The notes beneath the pieces are model-generated. The model saw nothing but the letters and a program-made list of their open reading frames with translations, was not told the origin of the DNA and ran no database searches. A DNA stretch of 32,000 nucleotides from Desulfobulbus propionicus (lineage in GTDB: Bacteria; Desulfobacterota; Dissulfuribacteria; Dissulfuribacterales; DYLC01): positions 21,984-53,983 of the forward strand of contig DYLC01000001.1 of assembly GCA_020722285.1 (NCBI GenBank), given 5' to 3'. Of this stretch, positions 2,227 through 31,290 are shown in pieces. A program made the translations under genes and the position numbers. Numbering within the stretch: the first letter of the stretch is position 1; each line of letters begins with the position of its first letter.

Positions 2227-4053
2227 TCAATCCTCGTCGTCCTGCTCCATTCTGGCCATGTCTTCAAACCTGATATCCAGTCCAAGCACTCCGATTATCT
2301 CATCCTCTATATTTCTTATTGGGGCGGATACCGTGATACACAATGCCCCAGTTATCTTGGAAGTGTAAAAGTGAGAGATATATATCTTACCTGTCTTGAT
2401 CGGTTCAATAAACCATGGCCGGTCAGAAAAATCATTGTAGAGCTGGAACTGGGCATACTTTGTGCGAAACTCTACATGAGTGATGTTTTCCGTAATTTTT
2501 TTGCCTTCAGTATTGACAACATACATAAACTGTACATAAGGATTTTCAGCCAGCCTCTGTTTCAGAAGAGGCTCTATCCTGGCTGGATCCATGGATGTAA
2601 TGTCTGGCAGTTCCACCAGACCTTCCACGATTTCTGTTGCCAGTTCCCGCACTTTTGCCTCAAGCCTGTCAAATTCAGAAACAAAAAACTCTGGCAAAAA
2701 TTTTCTCGCCAGCATCTCCATTTCCTCGTCGCTCATGGAAGTGATACGACCTGCATCATATTGCTGCATCACTTTCTTATACATTTTCACAATACCTGGG
2801 TGACGCTTGTCAACCTGCGCCTCACCAGCAAAACCGAGCTTCATGTTCACCCAGTGTGCAATGCCGGCCGAACCACTTTTATCTGAAATTATCACAGATA
2901 CAGGGCGATTCAGGATCTTTTCCGTATTGAAAATGTTGTAAATCTCTTCATTCTTCAAAAGGCCGTCTGCATGAATGCCCGCGCTGGTAGCATTGAAATC
3001 AGCTCCAACAAGCGGACAGTTGCGAGGTATGTGAACCCCAAGCTCCTTTTCAAAAAAGCGAGCCATATCTGTGATAGCCGTGGTATCTATTCCGTCCTGT
3101 GTGCCTCTCAAGGCTATGCGCTCTATCAAAAGCCCCTCTATCGGTGTGTTGCCTGTCCGTTCCCCAAAACCCAGAAGAGTTCCATTGACTGCGCCACAAC
3201 CGTACAGCCATGCTGAGGAGGCGTTAATTACAGATTTGTAAAAATCATTGTGACCATGCCATTCCAAAAGCTCGCCAGGTACACCTGCATCCTCAATCAC
3301 CGTGCGCACCAGCTTTGGCACACTGCGGGGCAGGCTTGCTCCAGGATATGTCACCCCATAGCCAAGGGTATCGCAAAGGCGTATCTTGATATCAATTCCG
3401 CTTTCTTCCCTTAACTTCATCAGTTCTATAGCAAATGGAATGACAAATCCATAAATATCCGCCCTTGTAATGTCCTCAAAATGACAACGAGGTCTTATGC
3501 CCTGTTCAAGGGCAGCTTTTACAATAGAAAGATACCCCTCCATTGCCTGAGAGCGAGTTTTATTGAGCTTCAAAAACACATGGTAGTCAGAGATTGAAGT
3601 TAGAATGCCCGTTTCTTCAAGCCCCATCTCTTTTACAAGCCTGAGATCCTCAGCCTTAGCCCTGATCCAGCCAGTAATCTCTGGAAATTGGTAGTCTTTT
3701 TCACGACATGCCATCAAGGCATCCCGATCCTTCTGTGTGTAGAGGAAAAACTCTGACTGCCTGATAATACCTTTTGGCCCACTTAGACGATGCAGAAAAT
3801 CAAATATCGTCGATATCTGTTCTACTGAATAGGGAGGCCTTGCCTGTTGGCCATCCCTGAAAGTTGTATCAGTAATGAACATATTATCGCATGGCTCAGG
3901 CATTGCAAACTTGTGATCAAATGTGATCTTGCAGACCTCGTCATAGGGAAACATCTCCCTCATGAGGTTTGGAGTCTCCACATCATGCAGTTTATACCAA
4001 TGTTCGCTGTGTTTATGGTCAAGGAGCTTTTTGGTTGGATTCCATTTCGCCAT
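2227..4053 (-). CDS. DRE-TIM (HMGL-like) aldolase of the isopropylmalate/homocitrate/Re-citrate synthase family, fused to a C-terminal Cache/PAS-like sensor domain
   Basis: 608-aa ORF with a strong RBS (AACAGGAGGAAAAAATG). The N-terminal ~430 aa carry FITDTTFRDGQQ, CHFEDITRAD, LCDTLGYG, EWHGHNDF and GFGERTGN, the catalytic TIM-barrel motifs. The FRDGQQ variant is what I associate with Re-citrate synthases. The C-terminal ~130 aa (FMYVVNTEGKKI...DRPWFIEPIKTGKIYISHFYTSKITGALCITVSAPI...IGVLGLDI) have the typical Cache/PDC signature. Confidence 0.8.
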   Translation of the reverse strand: MAKWNPTKKLLDHKHSEHWYKLHDVETPNLMREMFPYDEVCKITFDHKFAMPEPCDNMFITDTTFRDGQQARPPYSVEQISTIFDFLHRLSGPKGIIRQSEFFLYTQKDRDALMACREKDYQFPEITGWIRAKAEDLRLVKEMGLEETGILTSISDYHVFLKLNKTRSQAMEGYLSIVKAALEQGIRPRCHFEDITRADIYGFVIPFAIELMKLREESGIDIKIRLCDTLGYGVTYPGASLPRSVPKLVRTVIEDAGVPGELLEWHGHNDFYKSVINASSAWLYGCGAVNGTLLGFGERTGNTPIEGLLIERIALRGTQDGIDTTAITDMARFFEKELGVHIPRNCPLVGADFNATSAGIHADGLLKNEEIYNIFNTEKILNRPVSVIISDKSGSAGIAHWVNMKLGFAGEAQVDKRHPGIVKMYKKVMQQYDAGRITSMSDEEMEMLARKFLPEFFVSEFDRLEAKVRELATEIVEGLVELPDITSMDPARIEPLLKQRLAENPYVQFMYVVNTEGKKITENITHVEFRTKYAQFQLYNDFSDRPWFIEPIKTGKIYISHFYTSKITGALCITVSAPIRNIEDEIIGVLGLDIRFEDMARMEQDDED

Positions 4054-4273
4054 TTTTTCCTCCTGTTTTTCGATAAAATCTATAGAACTTTAAACAATCT
4101 GTATTTTGTTCGAGGACAAGGCGCAATAAGGTGAAAAATGCGCACACTTCCTAGGCGAAAGCATTTTTTGCTGATTAGCAAACAGATATCGGACAAAAGA
4201 ATCTTTCTTAACAACTCAGAAAGTTTAATGTAAAAAAGCCCGAAAGTCAAAGCCCTTTCACATAAAAGAGCTG

Positions 4274-4885
4274 CTATACCCTGACAACCTTTGTGGCAAG
4301 CTGAAAAGAGGTCACAATATCAAGCATATTTGTGGTCTCGCCCACTGCCTTTTGCTCAAGCAGGCCAAAATGATTAAGGCAGGTGCCGCACACTAATATG
4401 CTCACCCCAGACTCCTCCAAAGCCTTCAGGCTTTCAAGATATTCTGATCCAGTAATTGCAAGTCTGACGCCGGCATTAACAAATACAATCCGCCATAGCG
4501 CCCCACCCATTTCCTTCAGGGTCACAATAAAGCTTTTCATTAAGAGCCTGCCAAGCTCAGCATCCCCTGTGCCCATTGAGTCGGATGGTATGAAGACAAG
4601 CACCCTTTCCACCTCTGATTCTTTTTCTGAAACAGAAGGCGCAGGGTCAACAGCAATGGCGCAGCCTCCCTTGGCTGTAAGGATAAAAAAGTCGGTTGCA
4701 TTCTCTTTTACCTCAACAACCCAGCCCTGGCTCCTGAAAAATCTTTCCACATTCTGACGCGCTGCCTCATTGTCAACAGTTATCTCCACGATAGCTTCAG
4801 GATGACTCTCAATAGCCTCTTTTGCCACCAGCACAGGCTTTGGACAGGCAAGCCCCTTGCAATCATATCGTTTAATCACAGTCAA
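4274..4885 (-). CDS. yedF: YedF-type sulfurtransferase-like (selenium metabolism) protein: TusA-like N-domain plus DsrE-like C-domain
   Basis: 203 aa. The N-terminus YDCKGLACPKPVL carries the TusA CPxP motif. The C-terminal half (VLVFIPSDSMGTGDAELG...ILVCGTCLNHFG) is DsrE-fold-like. Start is TTG at 4885, 4 nt after AGGAGG (GTG at 4879 is an alternative). The gene overlaps the upstream gene by 14 nt. Confidence 0.8.
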   Translation of the reverse strand: MTVIKRYDCKGLACPKPVLVAKEAIESHPEAIVEITVDNEAARQNVERFFRSQGWVVEVKENATDFFILTAKGGCAIAVDPAPSVSEKESEVERVLVFIPSDSMGTGDAELGRLLMKSFIVTLKEMGGALWRIVFVNAGVRLAITGSEYLESLKALEESGVSILVCGTCLNHFGLLEQKAVGETTNMLDIVTSFQLATKVVRV

Positions 4886-7529
4886 AATCCCTCCTTACAA
4901 CGCGTATGCGCTGGCAATCCGACTGGCTAAGCCCAAAGATTGACTTTATCATCTCTATGGGTTTTGCAGACGGTCTGACCTCGAACGACGGCTTCATTTT
5001 CAAGAATGTTTTTTCCTGCAGATAAATGTATTCCTGCTCAATATCCGATAACCAGTTTTGAAGCTCACCTATCTCATTAACCTCCTTAAATCCAAGAGGT
5101 GCAAGTTCCTTAATCTGTTTTTTCAGGTCAAAAGAGATTATTTTTCCTTTTTTTTCAAGATCAACCTCCCACACATCCTGCACGTTGAAGTTATCTGTCA
5201 TTCTGCAAATATCTGCTGGCTCCTTTTGTAAAATCAGAAAGAAATAATCCCAGCGATCCTCAAAGGAAATCCGCTCGTCACCAGTCAGCTTTTGACAGGA
5301 TGTAAGCCTGACTCCAGGAGAAAGCTCCTGATTGAGCCTTGATATAATCTCTGAACTGTCAATGGATATCTCAAGCTCCATGCCAAGCTTCTGAGACAGA
5401 CCTTCCATTGCCATGGAAAGCGGAGAGCCAAAGGAAAGATAGGGCATTGGGTGAAAACCATGAGAATAAAGAAGCGGCAAAGCCGCCCTGCGGCATGCCC
5501 GATGAAACATGTGGGCCATGTCAAGGTGGCCAATAAAGCGCGCATCGCCTATCTTTGAGTAGTGTAGCTGATATCTGTTCCGCTTTTCCAGAGGCGCAAG
5601 ACTGATTTCTGATGACATAGAGCGTGTTTTTTTTGCCGTGGCTGAATAACAAACTACAGGCTCAAAGGAACGAGGCTTGATCTTTTTGAAATCACATACC
5701 CCACACCCCTGACATTTTCCATGTCTGCAGTCAGGCGTATAAAGCTCCTGGACAGAAGCCGGATCATCAGCCATCTTAATGGCTTTTTGCCTTTCAGAAC
5801 GCAAGTAGTCTGTGGTTACACCTGTAAAAATATACCTCCAGGCAAGCTCGGCATCAACAGAAATTGGCTCAAGGTATGCAGCAAGATCAATCCCCAACTC
5901 CCTGGCTGCATCTTCGTAAAGGTCAAATCTGAGATGGTCGCTCCATGCGTCAAGCCTAGCGCCCTTATGCCAGACCAACTCCAAAAGCCTTGTAAGTCTT
6001 CTGTCGCCCCTGGAAAAGACGCCCTCCAGAAAACTCATGACAGGGTTGTGCCACTTGAAAATAATGGAGCGGTCTTTCAGGTTGCTTCTTATCAACTCAA
6101 GCCTTCGCCTGCTCTCCTCAATGCTGATCTGCCCTTCCCACTGAAAAGGCGTATGTGATTTTGGAACGAACGTACCAACACTTATCGTAACAGTGATAGA
6201 TTTGTTGATAGATTTTCCCAACCGTACAAGCCTCCTGGCAAGCTCTGCAATAGCAAGTACGTCATCATCTGTTTCAGTTGGCAGTCCGATCATGAAATAA
6301 AGCTTCAGGCCCTTCCAGCCGTTTTCGTACACAATCCTCGCCGTTTCAAAAAGGCCCTTTTCTGTAATGCCCTTGTTGATCACCTGTCTCATTCGCTCAC
6401 TTCCTGCCTCAGGAGCAAGGGTAAAACCTGTTTTCCGTGCCTGCTTGATGCTGTCCACCATTTCCTTGCCAAGCGTGCCAACCCGAAGCGATGGCAAGGA
6501 GACAGAGACCCGGTCATCTCTGTCCATAAGCCTTGCGATCAAGGGCTGAATAGAGCTGTAATCGCCTGTGCTGAGACTTAAAAGTGAAAGCTCTTCCCAG
6601 CCTGAAGCCTTCAACCCTGCTTCGCATAGCCCGGATATAGTTTCAAAGGCACGTTCTCTTACTGGCCTATAGATCATGCCAGCCTGACAAAAACGGCACC
6701 CCCTGGTGCAGCCTCTGGCGATTTCAACCCCAAATCTGTCATGCACGATCTTAACCTGCGGAACAAGCGGTTTTATTGGAAACGAGGCTGAATCAAGTTC
6801 TGGCAGGATCCGTCTTTTGACAGGTGGCACATTCTGCTTTTGGCTACCAGGTTCTGATGGCCACCTTTCTGGCGGCGTATTGCTCTGAATCCTGTAAATT
6901 GGTCTGTAAAACGATGGCACATAAATGCCTTCAATCCCTGCAAGTATCTCAAGGAGGGCGCTTTTGCTGTCTTTGTCCCTAATCTTTCCCTTACAATCCT
7001 TAACCCTTTGGGCTATTTCGACAATTGCCTCCTCGCCATCTCCAATCAAAACAGCATCGAAGAAATCTGCCACCGGTTCAGGCTGCACAGAGGCGCTGCC
7101 TCCTCCAAGCACCAAGGGAAAAGGGGTTTCACGCCTGTCTTTGGAGTAAAAGGGTATAGACGAAAGGCTTAAAACAGTAGGGATGTTCGTGTAGCACAAC
7201 TCATAGGGCAGGGTAATACCAAGGATGTCAAATTGACTGACAGGTCGTCTGCTTTCAACTGCCCAAAGAGGTGTGCTGCTCTCCCGCATCTGATGCTCCA
7301 TGTCAGGATCAGGGGCATAGACCCTGTCTGCAAGAACCCAAGGCAGGTCATTTAAAATGTGATAAAGGATGTGAAGTCCCAGATGGGACATGCCAACCTC
7401 ATAGAGGTCAGGGAAACAGAGGCAAAACCTGACATCAGCATCCTGCCAGTTTTTTCGCCTGGCGTTTGTTTCAACCCCTGTATAGCGGGACGGCCGCTGC
7501 ACAGAGCCAAGGAGATGAGCAATATTCAT
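4872..7529 (-). CDS. Radical SAM protein of the TIGR03960 type (B12-binding-like N-domain) fused to a DUF2344/TIGR03936 C-terminal module; function unknown
   Basis: 885 aa. The CxxxCxxC cluster motif sits in EIARGCTRGCRFCQAGMIYRP. The N-terminus FPDLYEVGMSHLGLHILY and the segment LVLGGGSASVQPEPVADFFDAVLIGDGEE form the B12-binding-like fold. The C-terminus RYQLHYSKIGDARFIGHLDMAHMFHRACRRAALPLLYSHGFHPMPYLSFGSPLSMAMEG is the DUF2344 signature. The ATG directly abuts the recR stop (TAA|ATG). Confidence 0.85.
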   Translation of the reverse strand: MNIAHLLGSVQRPSRYTGVETNARRKNWQDADVRFCLCFPDLYEVGMSHLGLHILYHILNDLPWVLADRVYAPDPDMEHQMRESSTPLWAVESRRPVSQFDILGITLPYELCYTNIPTVLSLSSIPFYSKDRRETPFPLVLGGGSASVQPEPVADFFDAVLIGDGEEAIVEIAQRVKDCKGKIRDKDSKSALLEILAGIEGIYVPSFYRPIYRIQSNTPPERWPSEPGSQKQNVPPVKRRILPELDSASFPIKPLVPQVKIVHDRFGVEIARGCTRGCRFCQAGMIYRPVRERAFETISGLCEAGLKASGWEELSLLSLSTGDYSSIQPLIARLMDRDDRVSVSLPSLRVGTLGKEMVDSIKQARKTGFTLAPEAGSERMRQVINKGITEKGLFETARIVYENGWKGLKLYFMIGLPTETDDDVLAIAELARRLVRLGKSINKSITVTISVGTFVPKSHTPFQWEGQISIEESRRRLELIRSNLKDRSIIFKWHNPVMSFLEGVFSRGDRRLTRLLELVWHKGARLDAWSDHLRFDLYEDAARELGIDLAAYLEPISVDAELAWRYIFTGVTTDYLRSERQKAIKMADDPASVQELYTPDCRHGKCQGCGVCDFKKIKPRSFEPVVCYSATAKKTRSMSSEISLAPLEKRNRYQLHYSKIGDARFIGHLDMAHMFHRACRRAALPLLYSHGFHPMPYLSFGSPLSMAMEGLSQKLGMELEISIDSSEIISRLNQELSPGVRLTSCQKLTGDERISFEDRWDYFFLILQKEPADICRMTDNFNVQDVWEVDLEKKGKIISFDLKKQIKELAPLGFKEVNEIGELQNWLSDIEQEYIYLQEKTFLKMKPSFEVRPSAKPIEMIKSIFGLSQSDCQRIRVVRRDFDCD

Positions 7530-8168
7530 TTACGGCTTGCCGCAATTGAAACGATGCTCCATAGCACGTTTTAAGGTGATAGCATCCGCATATTTGACAT
7601 CCATGCCCATTGGAATGCCGCATGCAAGTCTTGTAATGACAGGTAATTTGGATGGCGTAAGCCGTTCGCCGAGCGCCTGAATCCTAGAGATGATATAAGC
7701 GCAGGTAGCCTCTCCGGCAGCAGTACTGCTGGTGGCAATTACAACCTCTGAAACCGGACTTTTTTCAATACGTTCCACAAGCTCCCTGATCCTGAGCTCA
7801 TCCGGCCCTATGCCCTCCTGCGGAGACAAGACGCCCTGCAACACATGATAAACCCCCCTGTAAGCGCCTGATGCCTCCATTGCAAGCATGTCTCCAGGCC
7901 CTTCCACCACACAAACTGTTTCATGGTTACGCCTCGAATCAGCACAGACAGGACACGGGTCAGTTTCTGAAAATGCATAACAGGCAGAACAGTAGCTTAT
8001 CCGCTTGTGCAGTTCAGCAATGGCACCTGAAAGCTCAAGGGCAACAGCCTCCTCACCTCGCAGAATATACAGGGCATATCGCGTTGCCGTCTTCTCTCCG
8101 ACCCCTGGAAATCTCTGAAGATTTCTAATAAGCCTTTCAAGGGCAGGAGGAATGACTTTGACCTGCAT
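7530..8168 (-). CDS. recR: Recombination protein RecR
   Basis: FPGVGEKTATRYALYIL (HhH), CSACYAFSETDPCPVCAD (C4 zinc finger) and VCVVEGPGDMLAME (Toprim). I prefer the ATG at 8168, which has GGAG 8 nt upstream, over the ORF-track start at 8198, which has no RBS. Confidence 0.93.
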   Translation of the reverse strand: MQVKVIPPALERLIRNLQRFPGVGEKTATRYALYILRGEEAVALELSGAIAELHKRISYCSACYAFSETDPCPVCADSRRNHETVCVVEGPGDMLAMEASGAYRGVYHVLQGVLSPQEGIGPDELRIRELVERIEKSPVSEVVIATSSTAAGEATCAYIISRIQALGERLTPSKLPVITRLACGIPMGMDVKYADAITLKRAMEHRFNCGKP

Positions 8169-8213
8169 ATCAAAGACTCCTAATTTGCCGCTGCTCATTT
8201 GTCAAAAACATCA

Positions 8214-8528
8214 TCACATCAGACCTGGTATCTTCATGCCGCCAGTTATCTTGGACATCTCCTGCTCCAGCATCTGCTTAGACCTGCTGAGGGCCTCATT
8301 CACTGCCGCCACTACCATGTCCTGCAACATCTCAACATCATCCGGGTTCACCGCTTCCTTCTCTATTGTGATAGACACAAGCTCATGCTTGCCATTGGCA
8401 ACCGCCTTGACCATTCCGCCTCCAACGCTCGCCTCAATTGTGCGATGAGAAAGCTCTTCCTGCATCTTGGTCATCTTGTTCTGAAGCATCTGCGCCTGCC
8501 GTATCATTTCCTTCATGTTGTGCTGCAT
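8214..8528 (-). CDS. ybaB: Nucleoid-associated protein YbaB/EbfC
   Basis: 104 aa with MIRQAQMLQNKMTKMQEEL...ASVGGGMVKAVANGKHELVSITI...DDVEMLQDMVVAAVNEAL. RBS AAGGAG is present. The position between dnaX and recR is the canonical one. Confidence 0.95.
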   Translation of the reverse strand: MQHNMKEMIRQAQMLQNKMTKMQEELSHRTIEASVGGGMVKAVANGKHELVSITIEKEAVNPDDVEMLQDMVVAAVNEALSRSKQMLEQEMSKITGGMKIPGLM

Positions 8529-8571: not shown

Positions 8572-10287
8572 TTATTTTTTAAAAAGGCTCACATCAACTA
8601 TTTTGGCGTCAAAGATGGCCAATGCATCCTGCACCAGTCTGTGCTGCAATAACTGTTCTTTTGTGCCGCCCTGCTGTCTATCTTGTTTTGTATCAGCAAG
8701 ATCAGCGGTCTCCTGTCGATCTACAGGAACAACAGACAAGGCTATGGTGCGGCCTGCAAACTCAGAGGCCATACCCCTGAGCTTTACAAGGTTGCCTTCA
8801 GCCTTTAGCATCTCATACTCAAAACCCGGATTGCACTCAAGGATCAATTGATCAGGCCTGTCAGTTGGCTGGATATTTTTACAGCATCTGAGATATGTTT
8901 CAAGCGGTGGATTATGCCTTCGAACAACATCACAGAAATCCTTCCAATTGTCATTGGTAATGCTGCTTGCAAGGGGCTTTTCATGTGTTTTTTCTTCTTC
9001 ACAGGAAACTGTCTGCTTGGATTCCAATGTATTTTTTCCTGTGGCAACAGTTGCTGACGGTTGAAAGTTTACAGCCTTAGTCTGCCCTCTCGCAGTATTT
9101 ACTACAATTTCTGGTCCCTCACATGTTGTTTTATGTATAAATTGAGGCCGGATATCTCCAATCTTCTCAAGAATTGAAGCAAGAGGCACCAGATTTTTTA
9201 TTGTGCAAAGACGCACCAAGAGTATCTCAGATAAAATTCTTGGGCTTGATGACCGTGAAAGTCCTTCCAGGCTTTTCATCAGCATATCAAGAAGCTGAAG
9301 AATAAAAACAGCAGATACTGTATCAAGTAAACGCTTAAGTTCTTCATCGCTGGCCAAATCAACACCGCTCACCAAAAGAGGCATAGCCTTGTCATATCCA
9401 AGCTCCTTTACCAGCAAGGTATCCCGCAAGGCATGAGCAAAATCCATAAGCAACCCTTTGAGCTCAACACCTTTCAGATAAGCTGTTTCCAGTTGTTCAA
9501 GCGCCATAGCGACATCAGACGTTAAAATCGCCTTCAATAGTCCGGTTAGCACAGTACTTTTGACAATACCAAGGGCATCACACAGATCTTCTGTGTTCAT
9601 TACCCCATAGGCGATGGCCTGGTCCAGCAAACTCAGGCTGTCACGGACACTTCCATCCGCCTCTTTGGCAATGAGAGACACAGCCTCATGCTCCATGCAT
9701 AAGCCCTCTTTTTGCAAAAGATTCTCTAAATGTCTGGCTATATCAAGATGATGTAACCGTTTAAACTCATGATGCTGACAACGAGAATGGATAGTGGCCG
9801 GAATTTTCTGAGACTCAGTAGTGGCCAGGATGAAATAGACAAAGCCAGGCGGCTCCTCAAGAGTCTTGAGCAGGGCGTTAAACGCCTCCTTGGTGAGCAT
9901 ATGCACTTCATCTATAATATAAACCCGAAAGCGGCACATGGCTGGCATGAATTTGCAGTTTTCCCTAAGCGCCCTTATCTCATCTATTCCACGATTGGAA
10001 GCACCATCAATCTCCTGGACATCAACTGCTGTGCCATTGGTGATTGCATGACATTTTGGACAGGTATTGCATGGAGTAGGAGTAGGACCGTGGTCACAAT
10101 TAAGCGCCTTGGCAAGAATGCGGGCAACAGTAGTCTTTCCCACTCCTCTAACGCCACTGAATATCTGGGCATGGGCAAGCCTTTTATTCTCTATTGCATT
10201 TTGAAGTGTTCTGGTGACAGAGGCTTGCCCGATGACATCTTCAAATGCCTGAGGTCTGTATTTTCTGGCAAGGACCAAGTATGACAT
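8572..10287 (-). CDS. dnaX: DNA polymerase III subunit gamma/tau
   Basis: MSYLVLARKYRPQAFEDVIGQ, Walker A GVRGVGKTTVARILAK, zinc module CDHGPTPTPCNTCPKCH, and Walker B YIIDEVHML. Start is set at the ATG at 10287. The ORF-track extension to 10332 overlaps the SRP RNA gene. Confidence 0.95.
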   Translation of the reverse strand: MSYLVLARKYRPQAFEDVIGQASVTRTLQNAIENKRLAHAQIFSGVRGVGKTTVARILAKALNCDHGPTPTPCNTCPKCHAITNGTAVDVQEIDGASNRGIDEIRALRENCKFMPAMCRFRVYIIDEVHMLTKEAFNALLKTLEEPPGFVYFILATTESQKIPATIHSRCQHHEFKRLHHLDIARHLENLLQKEGLCMEHEAVSLIAKEADGSVRDSLSLLDQAIAYGVMNTEDLCDALGIVKSTVLTGLLKAILTSDVAMALEQLETAYLKGVELKGLLMDFAHALRDTLLVKELGYDKAMPLLVSGVDLASDEELKRLLDTVSAVFILQLLDMLMKSLEGLSRSSSPRILSEILLVRLCTIKNLVPLASILEKIGDIRPQFIHKTTCEGPEIVVNTARGQTKAVNFQPSATVATGKNTLESKQTVSCEEEKTHEKPLASSITNDNWKDFCDVVRRHNPPLETYLRCCKNIQPTDRPDQLILECNPGFEYEMLKAEGNLVKLRGMASEFAGRTIALSVVPVDRQETADLADTKQDRQQGGTKEQLLQHRLVQDALAIFDAKIVDVSLFKK

Positions 10288-10310
10288 ATAGTATTTCAAA
10301 GACAAAAATA

Positions 10311-10404
10311 GCCAGGCACCCCCGCGGCACACAAGATTGACTGCTGCCGTTGCTTCCTTCCGGACCTAGCGGGGTTCACAGGACCATGTTGCGCAGGACC
10401 TGGC
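10311..10404 (-). ncRNA. ffs: Signal recognition particle RNA (small 4.5S type)
   Basis: The minus strand reads GCCAGGUCCUGCGC...GCUAGGUCCGGAAGGAAGCAACGGCAGC...GCCGCGGGGGUGCCUGGC. It contains the conserved domain IV motif GGUCCGGAAGGAAGCA. The 5' GCCAGG/CCUGCG segments pair with the 3' CGCGGG/CCUGGC segments, and UAUUUUUG follows. The position just upstream of dnaX is a classic synteny. Ends are accurate to about 5 nt. Confidence 0.8.
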
Positions 10405-10425
10405 TAAACAGGGGATAAAGTTAGA

Positions 10426-10518
10426 TGGCGGAGAGGGAGGGATTTGAACCCTCGGTACACCTTTTGGGCATACACACGATTTCCAATCGTGCTCCTTCAG
10501 CCGCTCGGACACCTCTCC
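10426..10518 (-). tRNA. tRNA-Ser(GGA): tRNA-Ser (anticodon GGA), long variable arm, CCA encoded
   Basis: The reverse complement is GGAGAGGUGUCCGAGCGGCUGAAGGAGCACGAUUGGAAAUCGUG...CCGAGGGUUCAAAUCCCUCCCUCUCCGCCA. The acceptor stem is GGAGAGG/CCUCUCC. The anticodon stem is CACGA/UCGUG with loop UUGGAAA. The T-loop is GGUUCAAAUCC. Confidence 0.95.
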
Positions 10519-10591: not shown

Positions 10592-10617
10592 GTAACCACA
10601 CAAAAAAGCCCCTCTCT
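10592..10617 (-). terminator. Rho-independent terminator downstream of tRNA-Arg
   Basis: The minus strand reads AGCCCCUC-CAAGA-GAGGGGCU followed by UUUUUUG. This is an 8-bp GC-rich stem, a short loop and a U6 tract. Confidence 0.8.
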
Positions 10618-10643
10618 TGGAGGGGCTAACCTATTGATTTTAT

Positions 10644-10720
10644 TGGTATGCCTGAAGGGATTCGAACCCCTGGCCTTCGGATTCGTAGTCCGACGCTCTA
10701 TCCAACTGAGCTACAGGCAC
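10644..10720 (-). tRNA. tRNA-Arg(ACG): tRNA-Arg (anticodon ACG), CCA encoded
   Basis: The reverse complement is GUGCCUGUAGCUCAGUUGGAUAGAGCGUCGGACUACGAAUCCGAAGGCCAGGGGUUCGAAUCCCUUCAGGCAUACCA. The D-arm is GCUC/GAGC. The anticodon stem is UCGGA/UCCGA with loop CUACGAA. The T-loop is UUCGAAU. As encoded, the acceptor stem begins with a G1-U72 wobble. Confidence 0.92.
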
Positions 10721-10753: not shown

Positions 10754-10939
10754 TTACCACCAACTAATTGTCTGATCGGCCTCAAATATCATCTGAACAA
10801 GCATGTCATAATTAGGTTTATTCTTGTACAGAGCATACTCTTTTACGTCACGATCTCTATTAATTATTGCTACAAGCTTATTTACAGTTTCACAAGGCTC
10901 ATTTCTATAGATATGAAGTATTTTTTTTGTGTCACTCAT
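10754..10939 (-). CDS. Small conserved hypothetical protein, last gene of the YTD-type cluster; short DsrH/TusB-like protein by my reading
   Basis: 61 aa with RBS AAGGAG, 14 nt after the preceding gene. The N-terminus KKILHIYRNEP and C-terminus NYDMLVQMIFEADQTISWW resemble the ends of TusB/DsrH as I recall them (MLHTLHRSP... and ...YTDFVRLTVKHPSQMAW). The family assignment is an inference. Confidence 0.55.
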   Translation of the reverse strand: MSDTKKILHIYRNEPCETVNKLVAIINRDRDVKEYALYKNKPNYDMLVQMIFEADQTISWW

Positions 10940-10953
10940 CTTATCGCTCCTTA

Positions 10954-11298
10954 TTACTCGCCACAGGCAGGTGGTGGCGTCTTGGTCTGTTTTGACAAAC
11001 CATAAGGTATGATGATATCAGCCTCTCTAAGCCTTTCGCCAAGCTCTTCCAAGGTAACGGGTGTCAACTCAACACCTTCTGGAAGCTCAGCTCCATCACA
11101 ACCCATCTGCAAAACATCACCCTCCATATCCCGTATCCAATCTATATTCTCTTTCAGATAATCTGAAAAGCGAGGAAGCTCGCCATTCATAAACACTGGA
11201 TAGGCATAATGATTTTCCACTGCCTGACCTAAGGCTGAACGTACACCGTCGCCAGCATAAATCCTGTTTGGAAGAAGCATATATATCTTTTTAGACAT
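10954..11298 (-). CDS. Conserved hypothetical protein of the YTD-type cluster; DsrF/TusC-like core with a Cys-bearing C-terminal tail
   Basis: 114 aa with RBS AAAGGAG. KKIYMLLPNRIYAGDGVRSALGQA and VTLEELGERLREADIIIPY resemble the first strand-helix and the C-terminus of TusC/DsrF (recalled as ...LRRELANYDVILRF). An extra tail GLSKQTKTPPPACGE follows. The family assignment is an inference. Confidence 0.6.
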   Translation of the reverse strand: MSKKIYMLLPNRIYAGDGVRSALGQAVENHYAYPVFMNGELPRFSDYLKENIDWIRDMEGDVLQMGCDGAELPEGVELTPVTLEELGERLREADIIIPYGLSKQTKTPPPACGE

Positions 11299-11313
11299 TT
11301 TTTAATCTCCTTT

Positions 11314-11646
11314 TTAAAGGACAAGATATTTGCCGCACTCATCAAGCACAGCACCGTGATATGCCTGAGTGCGCATCTGACGAGCGGTTAACCCCTGAGG
11401 TATGTCCTTCTCAGGGTCATACCCTTCACATGTGTAGCTATCGGCACATATAGCAATATCTTCAATATCACAAAGATTCGCAAGGGTTACAAAATCAGGA
11501 CTTTTGGTCAGATGAACTGACTTGAAAGTGAAAAACACCATCACTTTTTTCCCTGCCCTCACAGCAGCCTTGGCTATGCCCACCAGATGGGACATATGCT
11601 GCGGAGAAGTTACAAATATTCCAAGCTTATTTGGATCAGCAGACAT
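11314..11646 (-). CDS. DsrE-family (DsrE/TusD-like) sulfur-relay protein
   Basis: MSADPNKLGIFVTSPQHMSHLVGIAKAAVRAGKKVMVFFTFKSVHL shows the DsrE-fold pattern, and cysteines occur in ICADSYTCEG. Start is set at the ATG at 11646, preceded by TTAAGGAGAAAAAA. The ORF-track TTG at 11673 has no RBS. Confidence 0.7.
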   Translation of the reverse strand: MSADPNKLGIFVTSPQHMSHLVGIAKAAVRAGKKVMVFFTFKSVHLTKSPDFVTLANLCDIEDIAICADSYTCEGYDPEKDIPQGLTARQMRTQAYHGAVLDECGKYLVL

Positions 11647-11711
11647 TTTTTTCTCCTTAATTTTTAAACGCAATTTTTAGAAAAAATATACCCCCCGCTC
11701 AACCCTGAGCA

Positions 11712-11969
11712 CTATTTTTTCTTTACAAAAAAACGAATAAACCCTGAATCTTCCTTCTCGCCAAGATACTCATGTCCAGAACGGGCACACCAGCCTGGTA
11801 TATCGTTTCTTGAACCAGGATCTGTGCCAAGAACCTCAAGGATTTCACCTGCATTGATCTTCTCAATCTCTTTTTTAGTGCGTAGAAGAGGCATTGGGCA
11901 GCTAAGTCCCTTTGCATCCAATGTGCGCGCTACACTAAGACCATCTGGAGCCTGTTTAATGTCACTCAT
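11712..11969 (-). CDS. tusA: TusA-family sulfurtransferase / sulfur carrier
   Basis: 85 aa. LDAKGLSCPMPLLRTKKEIEKINAGEILEVLGTDPGSRNDIPGW carries the CPxP active-site motif and the TusA fold pattern. RBS is TAGGAGGAAAAC. Confidence 0.9.
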   Translation of the reverse strand: MSDIKQAPDGLSVARTLDAKGLSCPMPLLRTKKEIEKINAGEILEVLGTDPGSRNDIPGWCARSGHEYLGEKEDSGFIRFFVKKK

Positions 11970-11998
11970 GTTTTCCTCCTAAAAATTATATTTTTTTA

Positions 11999-13159
11999 TT
12001 ACATTTCAACAACAAGAGCATTGCTGTCTTCATTCCAGTCAATCACAACATACCAAACAACCATCAAGGCTATAATCAAAAACATTGTGCCACCATAACC
12101 AAGATAATCAGGCAGATACACTGCAGAGCCAAGTTTTTCCATCCACCCATTAGCACCAAACCAGTTACGCATCAGGGAGTTTGTAAGCCCAAAGATTATG
12201 ATAACCACCCAGAGTTTAATCTGCCCCTCAGCCACACGCCACAAAGAACCACTTCCACAACCACCTGCAACAACCATTGCTGCGCCGAAGATAAATCCGC
12301 CAACCAAGCTGCCCCAACCAAATGCAGACTCAACATACATGGAAGTATCCCTGAGCTCAGTAAACTTCAGAATCGCTATTCCAAACATACCCAATATTAC
12401 ACTGACAGCAACTGCCTTTCCCATTGCAGCCTCACCTGTCATAAACGGCTCCCTGAAACCGTTTACCATACAAAGCCTGCTGCGATGAAATACATAACCG
12501 ATGCCAGCACCAATCAACAAATAACCAGGCATCAACTCTGCACCATCAACATCAGAACCAGTATATGCATAAGCAGCCCCAATCAGAGCAGCAAATCCCA
12601 CCCAGCCCAAGGCTGGAGGAAGCTTGTTAAGTATGGTTGGCCCAGCAGGACCTGGAGTAAAATGCTCCATTTCCCAGTAGATGTATCTAAGCCCCACATA
12701 CACACCGGCAATAAGACCAATCATCATAGTTATGCCACTGGCAGAAAGGTTCTGAATCGCACAGTAAAACCCTCCAACATTACAACCAAAAGCCAGAGTT
12801 GAGCCAATCCCCATCAGGATGCCAGCAATAACACCCTTCCAAATCTCAAGCATCGGAGGAAATCTGAAGGCAAACTCACGGGCGATCACAGCAGAAATCC
12901 AGGCGCCAGCCAGTATTCCAATATCAATTACAGAGGATGAGAAATACAGCGGATGCTTGGGCGCATTTTCATATAAACCAACGGCATAAAATACCCAGTC
13001 TCCCCAATTACGAATCCCGCCAACCACTCCCCAGGGCCTTGCCCACGCTACCATAAATATAGACAACAAGGCAAGCAGTATCCCCCCGGTCATAGGAGAC
13101 CAGGTACGCTTAAAAAACGAATCATAAATCTCTGAAACCTTACTTGACATTGAACTCAT
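11999..13159 (-). CDS. yeeE: YeeE/YedE-family membrane transporter (thiosulfate or sulfur-compound uptake type)
   Basis: 386 aa, polytopic and glycine-rich, with the duplicated YeeE/YedE motifs LAFGCNVGG and VVAGGCGSGSLWR. RBS is CAGGAGGGG. A tusA-like gene follows 29 nt downstream. Confidence 0.88.
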   Translation of the reverse strand: MSSMSSKVSEIYDSFFKRTWSPMTGGILLALLSIFMVAWARPWGVVGGIRNWGDWVFYAVGLYENAPKHPLYFSSSVIDIGILAGAWISAVIAREFAFRFPPMLEIWKGVIAGILMGIGSTLAFGCNVGGFYCAIQNLSASGITMMIGLIAGVYVGLRYIYWEMEHFTPGPAGPTILNKLPPALGWVGFAALIGAAYAYTGSDVDGAELMPGYLLIGAGIGYVFHRSRLCMVNGFREPFMTGEAAMGKAVAVSVILGMFGIAILKFTELRDTSMYVESAFGWGSLVGGFIFGAAMVVAGGCGSGSLWRVAEGQIKLWVVIIIFGLTNSLMRNWFGANGWMEKLGSAVYLPDYLGYGGTMFLIIALMVVWYVVIDWNEDSNALVVEM

Positions 13160-22772: not shown

Positions 22773-23553
22773 TAGATATCTAAGCACACTACGGTGGCAG
22801 GATATACTTGATATAATAGTTGTAAGCTATATTATTTACAGAATAATCCTTCTAGTAAAGGGTACAAGGGCTGTGCAGATGGCATCAGGGCTTGCAGTGC
22901 TTGTACTGATATATTTTGTAGCAAGAGAACTGGAACTACTGACGCTTCACTGGCTTCTTGGAACTATCCTGAGTTCGTTATTTATATTGATTATTATAAT
23001 ATTTCAAGACGATATCAGGCGAGTTTTAATGCAAATGGGGCAAACTCCATTTACAAAGACAAAAGCAAAAACATTTCAGGCAATAGAAGAAATAGCAAAA
23101 GCAGCAGCAATCTTTTCCGAAGATAAAATTGGAGCATTGGTAATCATAGAAAGAGAGGTGGGCCTTGGCGACTATGTAGCAACAGGGATAAAACTTGATG
23201 CTGAAGTAACGAGATATCTCCTTGCAACAATTTTTTATAAAGGCACATCTCTCCACGATGGCGCTGTAATAATACAAAACGGGAAAATAAGCTCTGCTGC
23301 AAGCATGCTTCCACTTACTACCAATCCAGATGTAAGTCGAAGATTGGGAACAAGACACAGGGCAGCTATAGGAATAACAGAACAAACAGATGCTGTAGCA
23401 ATTATAGTTTCAGAAGAAACAGGCAATATATCTGTAGCTATAGGTGGAAAAATTACAAGAGAGATAGACATTAATACACTTAGACGTATTCTCTATAACG
23501 CTTTTTCCTATAATGAAAAAGATAAAAACTGGTGGAAGCGGAGATTTAGTTAG
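22759..23553 (+). CDS. cdaA: Diadenylate cyclase CdaA (c-di-AMP synthase), membrane-anchored
   Basis: Three N-terminal TM helices followed by the DAC domain: GALVIIERE, LHDGAVII, GTRHRAAIGITEQTDAVAIIVSEETG. The gene overlaps folP by 14 nt. Confidence 0.92.
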   Translation: MEALNRYLSTLRWQDILDIIVVSYIIYRIILLVKGTRAVQMASGLAVLVLIYFVARELELLTLHWLLGTILSSLFILIIIIFQDDIRRVLMQMGQTPFTKTKAKTFQAIEEIAKAAAIFSEDKIGALVIIEREVGLGDYVATGIKLDAEVTRYLLATIFYKGTSLHDGAVIIQNGKISSAASMLPLTTNPDVSRRLGTRHRAAIGITEQTDAVAIIVSEETGNISVAIGGKITREIDINTLRRILYNAFSYNEKDKNWWKRRFS

Positions 23554-23555
23554 AG

Positions 23556-24470
23556 ATGGCTTCTAAATTATTCAAAAGTGATCTAATATTAAAAATACTC
23601 TCATTATTATTTGCTGTAATACTATGGTTCTTTGTGGTGGCAGAGCAAAAGGCAGAAATTTCCACATCTATTCCTATAGAACTAATCAATCTCCCTAAAG
23701 ACATTATTGTTTCAAGTGATCTGCCATCACAGATAGACATAAGAATATACGGACCTAGAAGCAGATTACGAGAACTGTCGGCACAAAATCTATCATATAT
23801 TTTAGATATGAAAACTGCTTTTCCTGGAGAAAGCACATATCATATAACACCTGATGTATTAACAATACCTGCAGGTCTTAAAATTACAAGGATACATCCA
23901 AGTGAACTTAAACTCAATATCCAACGTCTTATTACAAAAAGCGTAACAATAAAACCAAAACTTATAGGTGAAATAGAAAAAGATTTTAAAATAGATTCAA
24001 TAACAGTAGATCCTAAAACAATTAAAATTTCAGGACCAGAGGATCTAATACACAACATTAAGGAATTACACACAACACCTGTAACAATAAACAATATATC
24101 AGAAGAGTTCACACAAAAGGTCGGTATTGACTTTCCTCAATCAATCATATCAGAAAATAATTTTTTAACTGCAACCATAAAACTAAAAGTCAGCCCCATT
24201 ATTGAAACAAGAACAAAATCAATCCCGATAGTTCTTGATAACAAAAACATATCTTACTGGCCAAAAAATATTAACTGTGAAATCGAAGGACCTATAAAAG
24301 TATTAAATGAAATCGACACAAAAAACGTTTTAGTTTCAATAGAAACAAAAAATCTATCAAAAGGCTTGCATAAAATTACACCTAAACTTGAAATTAATCT
24401 AACCAATTGCGTAATAAAAAAATGCAATCCAGATAAAATAAACATACAGGTCAGGAAAAATTTACCTTGA
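23556..24470 (+). CDS. cdaR: YbbR-domain protein CdaR (CdaA regulator)
   Basis: N-terminal TM segment ([18 protein letters not shown]) followed by repeated YbbR-like beta modules ([10 protein letters not shown]..., [15 protein letters not shown]...). The position between cdaA and glmM is the canonical one. Confidence 0.85.
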
Positions 24471-25819
24471 AAAAACTATTCGGAACAGATGGCATTAGAG
24501 GACTTGCCAATAAATATCCAATGACAGCCGAAGTTGCCACACAGATTGGCTTGGCTGTTTCATATTTATTCAGAAACACCACCCAAAAACACAAAAAGAT
24601 ACTAATAGGGAAAGATACCAGACTTTCATGCTATATATTTGAAAACGCGCTGGCTGCCGGTATATGCTCAATGGGTGTTGATACCTTATTTGTAGGGCCA
24701 ATGCCGACACCTGCGATTGCATTCCTAACTTCAAGCATGAGGGCTGATGCAGGAATAGTTATATCCGCATCCCACAATCCATTTTACGATAACGGAATTA
24801 AGATATTTTCAGGCAATGGCTTCAAGCTTGACGATGAAATTGAATACAAAATAGAACAACTTCTTGATACTGATATACTACTTAACAACAGACCAAGAGA
24901 AAAAGAAATTGGAAAGGCATACAGAATAGAAGATGCAAACGGCAGATACATAGTTTTTCTAAAAAATACCTTTCCAAAAACACTTACACTGGAAGGTATA
25001 AAAATAGTGCTTGATTGTGCAAACGGAGCGGCCTATAAAGTAGCTCCATCAGTGTTTGAAGAACTCGGCGCTGATGTCATTAAGATCGGAATAACACCTG
25101 ATGGAACGAATATAAATAGCAATTGCGGCGCGCTTTATCCTGAATTGATAAAATCAGAAGTAATAAAAAACAGAGCTGATATTGGAATAGCTTTCGATGG
25201 CGATGCTGACAGATTAATCGTAGTTGATGAAAAGGGTAATATTATAGATGGCGATCATATTTTAGCAATTTGTGCTAATAACTTAAAAATTAAAAACAAA
25301 TTAAATAAAAACACTGTAGTTTCTACTGTTATGAGCAACATAGGACTTGAAATTTTTCTTAAGGAAAATGGTATAAAATTATTACGAACAAAGGTTGGAG
25401 ATAGGTATGTTGTTGAATCAATGAAAAACAATGACTACAACCTTGGAGGTGAGCAATCAGGACATATTATATTTTTAGACCATAACACAACAGGAGATGG
25501 AATACTAGCAGCGCTGCAATTACTCGGCATAATGATATCTAATGAAAAACCTATTTCTGAGCTTGCAGCTTCAATGAAATCATTACCTCAAATACTTCAC
25601 AACATTAAAACATCAAAAAAAACAGATCTATCTACCATAGAAGGACTTCCAAAAATAGAAAAAAAAGTGCTTAAGGAACTCGGTAAAAACTCAAGAATTT
25701 TAATAAGAAATTCAGGAACAGAGCCCTTAATAAGAATAATGGTCGAAGGTGAAAATGAGGATAAAATTAAACATGCTGTGAATATATTAACTGAATATAT
25801 TAAATCAAATTGTCTATAG
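24467..25819 (+). CDS. glmM: Phosphoglucosamine mutase
   Basis: [10 protein letters not shown], active-site serine loop [15 protein letters not shown], metal loop AFDGDADR, and GGEQSGH. The TTG start overlaps the cdaR stop (TTGA). Confidence 0.95.
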
Positions 25820-26434
25820 GTTTAACTCCAATATATCTATAACTTCATAATGATGTTCTATATAATAATCCGCATCTAATTTTTTATTTTTATATGCTAC
25901 AAAATCTATATCTGCTGATTTAGCTGTATGTTCGTCTATATATGAATCACCTATAAACAATACCTCATTATTAACCAAATTAAACGAATTCATTAAAAGA
26001 AAAAGACCTTCTGAATCAGGTTTAGGTTTGACATCCAATGCACATAAAATCATATCGAAATAATTCGTAAACCCCATGAGCTTCATAAGTTCAATAGTGG
26101 TCGTAGTTCTGTTTGTAAAAACAGCAGTTTTTACAGGCGGCCTTATTTTAGATATAACTTCTTTAATCCCTGGCTCTGGTATGTGATAAGGTAAATAAGA
26201 AAAATAATCCATGGATGATAACATATCCTTTGCTTCGCCAAGTTTTTCCTGATAATTACTAAAAAGAAACTCTACTGACTGTATTGCGGTATGGCAATGT
26301 ACAAAGTCAAGTTCTTCTTCAGACATTAACTGTCTACCAATTTTAGATAATAAATCATTATAAAACAATCTATTAGACTCTTTTGAATCAACCAGCACCC
26401 CATCGCAATCATAAACAATCAATGAATATTTCAT
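25814..26434 (-). CDS. HAD-superfamily hydrolase (subfamily IA, phosphatase-like)
   Basis: Motif I is [12 protein letters not shown], motif II is AVFTNR, and motif IV is [13 protein letters not shown]. The start overlaps the upstream gene by 4 nt (ATGA). Confidence 0.85.
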
Positions 26435-27549
26435 AACTTATGTTTAATGTTTTTCAATTTAAATCCCTTTAAAGTCTTAACATTCATGTTTTTGGATTGT
26501 ATGAGAACCTTATGGGTTTCTCCCATCCCCTGTGGAAAAATCAATGCTTTTATCCCTGCAAGCTCAGGCGAAAAAGGGGTTATTTCTGGATAAAGCGTTT
26601 TCAGTATTATTTCGAAATCAAGCGCTGCCAAAAAAGCCCATTGATTTGTATAACCAACAGTATTAAGACCAACCTCACTGCCCCATGTTGAAAGATCAGA
26701 AAAATTTACATGAGATGTAATATCTTGTTCACCAGGGTTTTGCAAAATATCATCTGTTACAACATGCGATTTATAAGACAACAATGTTCCTCTATTTCTG
26801 ACCGGGCTGAAGTACTCTGACCTTACATAACCATAATCAATAGTTAAAACAAAACCCTTCTTTATTTTTTTAGATAACATATCTAAAAAAATTTTTATCT
26901 CAAGATTAACTTCTGTCTGATAATCATCAGATTTTATCTCAAATTGAGAGAGATAATTTAATATCTCTTTATTTGTTATAGCTGTATTTTTAAAACAAAA
27001 CCTACTATTATTATATGTAACAGCCAATTCATAATAAAAATCCCTTACTTTTTTTACTAAAAAAACAGGAAATGAATCCAAAAGTTCATTTGATATAAAA
27101 CAGCCGTTAACCTCTGGCATATCCTCAATTTTATCAAACCAAACAACCTTGCCAGATATATTTCCTAAAATCTTCTTTTGATATTCAATATATTTTTTAT
27201 TAGGTTCAATAATTACATATAAAATTTTATCATAAAAATCATATTTACTCAAGGCATGCAAAATATCATAAGCAAGGTAACCAGCCCCTGCCCCCATTTC
27301 AACAATTGTCATTTCAGGAACCTGCAACAGACTCCAAAATTCTTCTATTTGATTTGCAAGCAATGCACCAAAAAGTCTGTTCGAGTGCGGTGACGTGACA
27401 AAATCGCCATTAACTCCTATTGGAGGTATGCTTCCTCGATAATAGCCATATTTATCGTGATACAAACAGATGTCCATGAAATCACGAAATGAGATATGAC
27501 CATTTTTTAAGATTTGTTCCTTGATTAAATCTGCAAGTATGGATGACAT
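26431..27549 (-). CDS. Class I SAM-dependent methyltransferase, MidA/NDUFAF7-like (DUF185, COG1565)
   Basis: 372 aa with ISFRDFMDICLYHDKYGYY, GDFVTSPHSNRLFG, and the SAM-binding loop IVEMGAGAGYLAYDIL. Confidence 0.8.
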   Translation of the reverse strand: MSSILADLIKEQILKNGHISFRDFMDICLYHDKYGYYRGSIPPIGVNGDFVTSPHSNRLFGALLANQIEEFWSLLQVPEMTIVEMGAGAGYLAYDILHALSKYDFYDKILYVIIEPNKKYIEYQKKILGNISGKVVWFDKIEDMPEVNGCFISNELLDSFPVFLVKKVRDFYYELAVTYNNSRFCFKNTAITNKEILNYLSQFEIKSDDYQTEVNLEIKIFLDMLSKKIKKGFVLTIDYGYVRSEYFSPVRNRGTLLSYKSHVVTDDILQNPGEQDITSHVNFSDLSTWGSEVGLNTVGYTNQWAFLAALDFEIILKTLYPEITPFSPELAGIKALIFPQGMGETHKVLIQSKNMNVKTLKGFKLKNIKHKL

Positions 27550-27758
27550 AATAGATTTGTGTTATAGTTTATTATTTGTTGATAATCAATATGCAGCTTG
27601 TTAAAAAAACAAATGGCGTTTTTTATTTTTTAAGATAAAAACAATATTACCTAAATTTTACTAACATATATTTTTCTGAAAATTCAATAAGTTATACTTA
27701 TAATAACAAGATAAACAATATTATTAATTATAGTTTTTATATATAAGGAGATAAAATT

Positions 27759-31290
<3,532 letters not shown>

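Follow-up and report, generated by a model that had tools for sequence, protein, structure and literature searches.

Introduction

MiaB and MtaB are radical S-adenosylmethionine (SAM) enzymes whose target is the anticodon loop of tRNA; RimO modifies ribosomal protein S12; RlmN is a dual-specificity radical SAM methylase that makes m2A in rRNA and tRNA. In E. coli, a TusA/TusBCD relay serves tRNA thiolation. Here we analyze a radical SAM protein of 885 amino acids (aa) whose gene adjoins yedF, the gene for a protein with a TusA-like and a DsrE-like part, in a 32,000-nucleotide stretch of DNA from Desulfobulbus propionicus (assembly GCA_020722285.1, contig DYLC01000001.1, positions 21,984 to 53,983 of the forward strand; hereafter 'the window', in the coordinates of which all window positions are given). 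An earlier note on this DNA had proposed that YedF is a dedicated sulfur or selenium (S/Se) carrier, that the enzyme performs an S/Se insertion or modification, and that the genes beside it hint at a nucleic-acid or housekeeping substrate. The results presented below indicate that the protein is a member of a widespread family with a module predicted to have the fold of RNA-binding pseudouridine synthases, and that its pairing with yedF is a feature of one small clade. We consider it best explained as a radical SAM enzyme that acts on RNA and binds it through a TruA-like module, a reading to which we assign a probability of roughly 0.5.

Results

The protein belongs to the TIGR03960/TIGR03936 family

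The gene for the 885-aa protein occupies 4872..7529 on the minus strand. Against profile hidden Markov models (HMMs), the protein scores 668.5 bits with TIGR03960, the model of a B12-binding radical SAM protein named 'rSAM_fuse_unch' (aa 6-615; cut-off 462.3), and 133.7 bits with TIGR03936, a model named for a 'radical SAM-associated protein' (aa 652-813; cut-off 71.9), and Pfam detects the domains Radical_SAM_N2, Radical_SAM and DUF2344 (PF10105). Scores of hundreds of bits rule out a chance open reading frame (ORF). Along the protein, the N-terminal Rossmann or B12-binding-like domain (Radical_SAM_N2 by Pfam, aa 51-205; 6915..7379, minus strand) is followed by the radical SAM core (aa 268-431; 6237..6728, minus strand), which contains the triad C274-x3-C278-x2-C281; then come a conserved four-Cys motif, C601-x4-C606-x2-C609-x2-C612 (5694..5729, minus strand), and the DUF2344 region (aa 650-885; 4875..5582, minus strand). 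Residue conservation was counted over 72 family members. The CX3CX2C triad is Cys in 72/72, and the four positions of the CX4CX2CX2C motif after the core, all of which are Cys in the window protein, are Cys in 65-70 of the 72; the latter motif is a candidate site for an auxiliary Fe-S cluster. Because the protein has all defining features of TIGR03960/TIGR03936, we conclude that it is an ordinary member of this widespread family.

This is a large family: each of the 8000 database candidates that were scored had E<=1e-10. The best 120 database matches are without exception fused proteins, of 781-963 aa. The closest relative, P0001, is 68% identical to the window protein, and all other relatives are at most 53% identical. 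Four loci (L051, L059, L061 and L071) instead carry a split form, in which an ORF of ~630 aa matching TIGR03960 is followed by a separate DUF2344 ORF of ~211-233 aa. The description in the earlier note of a fusion of two parts that are separate adjacent genes elsewhere is thereby borne out, as is its statement that the family has no established function: our literature search found no functional study of TIGR03960, TIGR03936 or DUF2344.

In the window protein and in P0001, the most conserved motif of DUF2344 (window 5391-5411, aa 707-713) carries the changes G707A, S710G and E713Q, which turn PLPxG[TM]ESLxE into PLSMAMEGLSQ. Position 713 is Glu in 70/72 homologs and Gln in the window protein, and E709 is Glu in 50/72. 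These changes may reflect a relaxed or shifted function in the lineage of the window and P0001. The yedF-linked enzymes of Dissulfurimicrobium keep the canonical motif, so no enzyme signature tracks with yedF.

The DUF2344 region has the predicted fold of TruA-type pseudouridine synthases

The AlphaFold 2 model of the DUF2344 region (residues 620-885) has a predicted local distance difference test score (pLDDT) of 90.7. In a Foldseek search with this model, the top 21 PDB matches were all TruA, Pus1 or Pus3 (probability 1.0, E 1.5e-6 to 3.4e-4), several of them tRNA complexes, and inactive pseudouridine-synthase-like mitoribosome assembly factors (e.g. PDB 6sga) ranked after them. The superpositions with TruA, Pus1 and Pus3 have template-modelling scores of about 0.45-0.54 over ~230-300 aligned columns, at 9-12% identity. 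On the basis of this model, the region is confidently predicted to adopt the two-lobed alpha/beta pseudouridine-synthase fold of TruA/Pus1 type, and the prediction agrees with the placement of DUF2344 by Pfam among the pseudouridine-synthase families (PMC7955657). At the level of sequence, no Pfam PseudoU_synth match was obtained for the 885-aa protein, a PDB sequence search with the DUF2344 region returned no match even at E<=10, and the DUF2344 family alignment contains no recognizable catalytic motif of the RTD type (RTD-x-GVH in TruA); the conserved acidic residues of DUF2344 are E709 and E713, the latter replaced in the window. A truA gene, sought among 172 gathered sequences for a catalytic-Asp profile, was not found.

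For the N-terminal part, the AlphaFold model of residues 1-640 has a pLDDT of 87, and its best structural match is MgmA (PDB 9ccb; E 6.6e-15), followed by MtaB, MiaB, AprD4, RimO, CysS and OxsB. MgmA is also the best PDB sequence match of the 885-aa protein (E 6.4e-6), and in the NCBIfam ranking the B12-type models TIGR04013 (E 1e-17) and TIGR04014 (E 1e-13) stand ahead of those for MiaB and RimO (~1e-4). The B12-binding model PF02310 itself gives 17.1 bits (E 0.005), below its cut-off of 32.1, and the candidate lower-ligand residue, His49, is Tyr in 14/72 homologs. Membership in the methylthiotransferases was considered and ruled out: the protein scores 21.4 bits with TIGR00089 (cut-off 251), has no TRAM match, and is missing the three conserved Cys that serve the auxiliary cluster in the N-terminal UPF0004 domain of those enzymes; the sole Cys of its own N-terminal domain, C112, is Cys in 17/72 family members.

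Family members are found in RNA-centred gene neighbourhoods

A gene for RNase E/G (PF10150) lies directly downstream of the enzyme gene, on the same strand, in 81/124 informative loci (37/70 plus 44/54). It is followed either by the genes for L21, L27 and Obg (rplU-rpmA-obg) or by those for RNase P protein, YidD, YidC and Jag/KhpB (rnpA-yidD-yidC-jag), and the L21, L27, Obg, RNase P protein and Jag/KhpB neighbours were confirmed by Pfam. In two Dissulfurimicrobium-like contigs, L169 and L172, rlmN is found directly upstream of the enzyme gene (at 3953-5011 of L169, 396 bits, and at 257-1285 of L172), and in L169 the two genes overlap by 11 nt. To judge from gene order, adjacency to rlmN is a further RNA-modification context for the family.

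The suggestion of a nucleic-acid substrate in the earlier note is thus supported, though on other grounds: the TruA-type fold predicted for DUF2344 and the RNase E/G, L21, L27, Obg and rnpA/jag neighbours. The position beside the DNA replication and repair genes dnaX and recR is clade-limited, as set out below.

The pairing with yedF is confined to one clade

The yedF gene (4274..4879, minus strand) encodes a protein that scores 219.5 bits with TIGR03527 (cut-off 110). Its motifs C14-P-K-P and C166-G-T-C, which are invariant in five orthologs, correspond to the CPxP motif of the N-terminal TusA/SirA-like domain and the CGxC motif of the DsrE-like C-terminal domain by which YedF has been defined (PMC5322559). 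We conclude that the window protein is a bona fide YedF. YedF proteins are widespread and statistically tied to selD (PMC5322559); no selD was seen within the 32-kb window.

Outside the clade of the window enzyme, the surroundings of the enzyme gene were searched by tblastn in 80 genomes of species (L002-L081, ±8 kb) and in a further 80 contigs from metagenomes (L086-L165, ±6 kb), with the window YedF, RecR, YbaB and DnaX, the TusA of the YTD cluster and the HMGL/dCache protein (both described below) as queries; the limit was E<0.1 in the genome set and E<1e-4 in the two sets combined. A YedF or TusA-like gene was found within 6-8 kb of the enzyme gene in 0/160 of these loci, and there were no matches to RecR, YbaB, DnaX or the HMGL/dCache protein in the same 160 loci. 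Conservation of the yedF adjacency in related genomes, on which the earlier note had staked its proposal, therefore fails outside one clade.

Within the clade, we examined the contigs of the closest relatives (45-68% enzyme identity) together with the window, which gave 12 informative loci. The yedF gene is directly downstream of the enzyme gene in five: the window, L001 (the contig of P0001), L083 (Dissulfurimicrobium hydrothermale; YedF 62% identical, E 3e-79), L169 and L172. In L171, a bona fide yedF is found at a distance of 3 kb and on the opposite strand, and there is no yedF in L082, L084/85, L166, L168, L170 and L173; L167, in which the contig ends at the gene, is uninformative. The flanks of the yedF-linked loci differ. 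In L001 the order is as in the window, with ybaB, recR, the enzyme gene, yedF, the HMGL/dCache gene and a paralog of the enzyme gene; in L083 the upstream position is occupied not by recR but by purL, on the opposite strand; and in L169 and L172 rlmN is upstream, with dnaX-ybaB-recR a few kb downstream. Conversely, L166 keeps ybaB, recR and the enzyme gene and has a major facilitator superfamily (MFS) transporter gene in place of yedF. A recR gene directly upstream of the enzyme gene is found only in the window, L001 and L166; that is, adjacency to dnaX/recR is clade-limited.

In a neighbour-joining tree, the closest relatives form one clade relative to the outgroups, and within it yedF-linked and unlinked lineages are interspersed. 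The patchiness inside the clade and the absence outside it indicate that yedF adjacency is an ancestral feature of the clade that was lost repeatedly, not a property of the family. We conclude that the pairing is real, that it is confined to one small clade of sulfur-cycling, Dissulfurimicrobium-like bacteria, and that it is a weak functional clue.

The enzyme gene lies in a tightly packed gene run

The stop codon of recR (TAA, 7532-7530) is followed at once by the ATG of the enzyme gene at 7529, the abutment that the earlier note had described. The same note had described the last 14 nt of the enzyme gene as overlapping yedF. An overlap exists, but its length is most likely 8 nt, not 14: the overlap with the enzyme stop is 8 nt (GTGATTAA) if yedF starts at GTG 4879 and 14 nt if it starts at TTG 4885, and GTG 4879 is the probable start because it is homologous to the ATG with which yedF begins in the closest relative (MIKKYDC vs VIKRYDC in the window) and because a ribosome-binding site, aaggaggg, lies ~10 nt upstream of it.

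Upstream of recR, the window holds the classic ffs-dnaX-ybaB-recR block, as the earlier note had it for dnaX-ybaB-recR. The minus-strand gene run is headed by a tRNA-Arg gene (10644-10720), followed by a 93-nt tRNA-Ser(GGA) gene (10426-10518) upstream of ffs; reading this 93-nt tRNA as tRNA-Sec, which would have provided a selenium link, was ruled out by its identity as tRNA-Ser(GGA). The gene for the signal recognition particle (SRP) RNA, ffs (10307-10405, minus strand; RF00169, 70.9 bits), heads the conserved block. The dnaX gene, listed as an ORF at 10332..8572 (minus strand), probably starts at 10287 (8572..10287; M16 of the listed ORF), because a start at GTG 10332 would overlap the SRP RNA and because the dnaX HMM alignments start at aa 16-21 of the listed ORF. 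Pfam and NCBIfam profiles identify ybaB/ebfC (8214..8528, minus strand) and recR (7530..8198, minus strand), the start of which may be the second Met, at 8168.

No terminator-like site is present at any junction of the gene run. One such site (10627..10607) falls between tRNA-Arg, which it closely follows, and the tRNA-Ser/SRP RNA/dnaX block; another, a weak one (4272..4251), lies beyond the end of yedF. An internal promoter or terminator that would split the enzyme gene from yedF or recR was also sought and rejected: consensus matches are no commoner than in shuffled sequence, and none falls at the junctions. The genes are tightly packed, and recR, the enzyme gene and yedF are probably co-transcribed.

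Other features of the window

The decayed paralog of the enzyme that the earlier note had placed at 1330-2182 proves to be a frameshifted, truncated pseudogene of an unfused TIGR03960-like paralog. On the minus strand, window 2173..1381 matches a paralog of 531 aa in L001 over residues 2-52, 55-90 and 95-256, each segment in a different frame, corresponding to two frameshifts; the C-terminal half is missing, and nothing in the window corresponds to residues 257-531. The L001 paralog (6373-7968 of that contig) is intact, unfused and divergent, keeps a C-terminal Cys motif, and scores 328 bits with TIGR03960, which is below the cut-off; its identity to the fused enzyme is 31%. On that contig, yedF and the HMGL/dCache gene stand between the two radical SAM paralogs.

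The HMGL/dCache gene (window 2227-4053, minus strand; L001 4494-6323) encodes a protein of 608 aa with an HMGL-like catalytic domain of the homocitrate/citramalate/isopropylmalate-synthase type and a C-terminal dCache/PDC sensor domain, an unusual architecture. Between the window and L001, the identity of this protein is 90%, against only 68% for the radical SAM enzyme encoded beside it, and the protein is absent from all other loci in which it was sought.

The separate TusA/DsrE cluster that had been noted at 10754-13159 (minus strand) is indeed present and corresponds to the YTD cluster, which is already known. Its genes are a YedE-like Sulf_transp gene (11999-13159), which scores below the YedE and TsuA cut-offs (109 vs 350 bits), a tusA gene (11712-11969), a DsrE-like gene (11314-11673) and two small conserved ORFs (10954-11298 and 10754-10939). 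The YTD cluster is known from sulfur-disproportionating bacteria and has been proposed as a marker of disproportionation (PMC8780430), and its small proteins are reported to make up a DsrEFH type II sulfurtransferase (PMC13490349). The presence of the cluster points to a sulfur-disproportionating member of the Desulfobacterota as the source organism.

From ~23000 to 31300, the G+C content of the window drops from about 45% to 26-35%, and the GC skew flips sign near 27-28 kb. The low-G+C stretch contains dnaN (27759-28901) and gyrB (28894-31290), with no dnaA or recF between them. The window probably spans or abuts a replication origin.

Discussion

According to the reading that we favor, the TruA-like module would bind structured RNA, either rRNA or tRNA, perhaps flipping out the target base, and would present the bound RNA to the radical SAM site, which would perform a C-H functionalization, with the four-Cys motif holding an auxiliary Fe-S cluster. 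The assignment to RNA is made because of the predicted fold and because of four independent RNA-centred contexts: rng/rne, rplU-rpmA-obg, rnpA-jag and rlmN. As to the chemistry, methylation of the MgmA or class B type would be likelier than sulfur insertion: methylation is somewhat favored by the affinity to MgmA and to the B12 class, and sulfur insertion is kept alive by the similarity to MiaB and RimO, by the extra Cys cluster and by the clade-limited YedF neighbour. In the Dissulfurimicrobium-centred clade, the gene would have left the rng context and come to lie behind ffs-dnaX-ybaB-recR and ahead of yedF. The pairing with yedF is, on this reading, best explained as a clade-specific inherited gene order, in which an S/Se hand-off is possible but not required.

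Several observations weigh against this reading. The pair formed by the enzyme gene and yedF has been kept although its flanks were rearranged several times (they differ between window/L001, L083 and L169/L172), at an enzyme identity of only 49%, a persistence somewhat above that of usual neutral synteny. Conserved extra Cys clusters are typical of sulfur-inserting radical SAM enzymes, and the best structural matches include MiaB, MtaB and RimO. A TruA-like fold is no proof of RNA binding, and by analogy with RimO the substrate could be a ribosomal protein. Use of cobalamin, for which the protein is a candidate, is unproven, given the 17.1 bits with PF02310 and the Tyr in place of His49 in 14/72 homologs. 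Finally, our literature search found no experiment or paper on the radical SAM-DUF2344 family.

An alternative that gives the yedF neighbour greater weight is that YedF is a dedicated chalcogen donor and that the enzyme inserts S/Se, or a methylthio or methylseleno group, into RNA in the manner of MiaB, with the four-Cys cluster as acceptor or relay. The overlap of the two genes, the retention of the pair in five loci with three flank arrangements (and of yedF 3 kb away in a sixth), the higher conservation of YedF than of the enzyme (61-73% vs 49-68%), the strong structural matches to MiaB, MtaB and RimO, the conservation of the four-Cys motif and the precedent of the TusA/TusBCD relay in tRNA thiolation all argue for this alternative. 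It is nevertheless hard to reconcile with the lack of a YedF or TusA neighbour in the 160 loci outside the clade and of yedF in half of the loci inside it, including L166, where recR and the enzyme gene are kept and an MFS gene stands instead; moreover, the MiaB-type N-terminal three-Cys site is missing (C112 is Cys in 17/72), sequence affinity is nearer to B12-type methylases than to methylthiotransferases, and the canonical DUF2344 motif of the yedF-linked Dissulfurimicrobium enzymes leaves no enzyme signature that tracks with yedF. YedF is also found, to our knowledge, in organisms without the radical SAM-DUF2344 family, E. coli among them. Together with the wide distribution of YedF and its statistical tie to selD (PMC5322559), these observations make a dedicated donor role quite unlikely. 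The earlier proposal of an S/Se insertion is accordingly weakly supported, by the overlap of the genes and the recurrence of the pair in the clade, and is opposed by its absence from the 160 loci elsewhere. In its most far-reaching form, the enzymes of the Dissulfurimicrobium-related clade, and perhaps of the whole family, would be RNA-modifying radical SAM enzymes of a new type, with the TruA-like domain presenting a nucleotide of rRNA or tRNA; in these sulfur-disproportionating bacteria, S/Se would come from YedF via the four-Cys cluster and yield a thio-, methylthio- or seleno-nucleoside as yet without an assigned enzyme. We regard this form as a long shot.

The context of the family as a whole, in which rplU and rpmA recur downstream of the enzyme gene, also brings into view a protein substrate: the enzyme could modify a ribosomal or other protein, possibly L21 or L27, with DUF2344 as a protein- or ribosome-docking module, much as RimO modifies S12. 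The protein-modifying enzymes RimO and MgmA are among the best matches, in line with such a role. It is improbable, however, in view of the facts that RNase E/G, and not L21 or L27, is the nearest and commonest neighbour, that ranks 1-21 for DUF2344 are all RNA-binding pseudouridine synthases, several of them solved with tRNA, and that the rnpA/jag and rlmN contexts are likewise RNA-centred. A different alternative concerns yedF alone, and is compatible with an RNA-directed enzyme: yedF would serve dissimilatory sulfur trafficking with the YTD cluster (yedE-like, tusA, DsrEFH type II) and would share with an unrelated enzyme nothing more than a transcript. In favor of it, ~5.9 kb separate the start of yedF (4879) from the end of the YTD cluster (10754), which is upstream on the same strand; sulfurtransferase activity and a response to disproportionation conditions have been described for YTD proteins (PMC13490349; PMC8780430); and the yedF-linked relatives are Dissulfurimicrobium, which are obligate disproportionators. 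In D. hydrothermale, however, yedF (LGS26_04730) is far from YTD (LGS26_02865-02885) and still beside the radical SAM gene, and in the window a terminator-like site and two tRNA genes part YTD from the dnaX block, so that this alternative appears doubtful.

The reading that we prefer remains that of a radical SAM enzyme directed at RNA by a TruA-like module. TIGR03960/TIGR03936 is a large radical SAM family that occurs in many bacterial phyla and is conserved beside the genes for RNase E/G and for L21, L27 and Obg, and the TruA-type fold predicted for its partner domain narrows the search for its substrate to RNA, with rRNA and tRNA as the likeliest candidates. The presence of YedF beside the gene in a single clade gives a weak hint on the chemistry; if true, it would link an S/Se carrier to RNA modification, and if the YedF link is not real, the locus is a tightly packed housekeeping operon. 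The question is worthwhile at the level of the family, to which this locus adds a weak, clade-restricted clue.

Comparison with described systems places the 885-aa protein between several enzyme classes. Like MgmA (the methyl-coenzyme M reductase glutamine C-methyltransferase; TIGR04014) and further class B, or cobalamin-dependent, radical SAM methylases such as CysS and OxsB, it has a Rossmann N-terminal domain followed by a radical SAM barrel. It is 18% identical to MgmA, however, and scores 50.9 bits with the MgmA family (cut-off 360); furthermore, MgmA has a protein substrate and is without a TruA-like domain such as the 885-aa protein carries. The protein is thus not demonstrably a class B methylase. 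With MiaB, MtaB and RimO, which match its model strongly in structure (E about 1e-10 to 1e-9), it has in common the order of a Rossmann-like N-terminal domain, a radical SAM core and a C-terminal substrate-binding domain, but it differs from them in having no conserved three-Cys site in the N-terminal domain, no TRAM domain and an extra Cys motif after the core. To TruA, Pus1 and Pus3 it is related by fold only, and it differs from them in that the TruA-like module is fused to a radical SAM enzyme. In contrast to YedE/SelD-linked selenium metabolism, the window YedF is without an adjoining selD or bona fide yedE. And whereas the genes of TIGR03960/TIGR03936 members mostly adjoin rng/rne, the window gene lies between recR and yedF. 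We conclude that the locus holds no system of a new kind, but a member of a known, still uncharacterized family at an operon position specific to its lineage.

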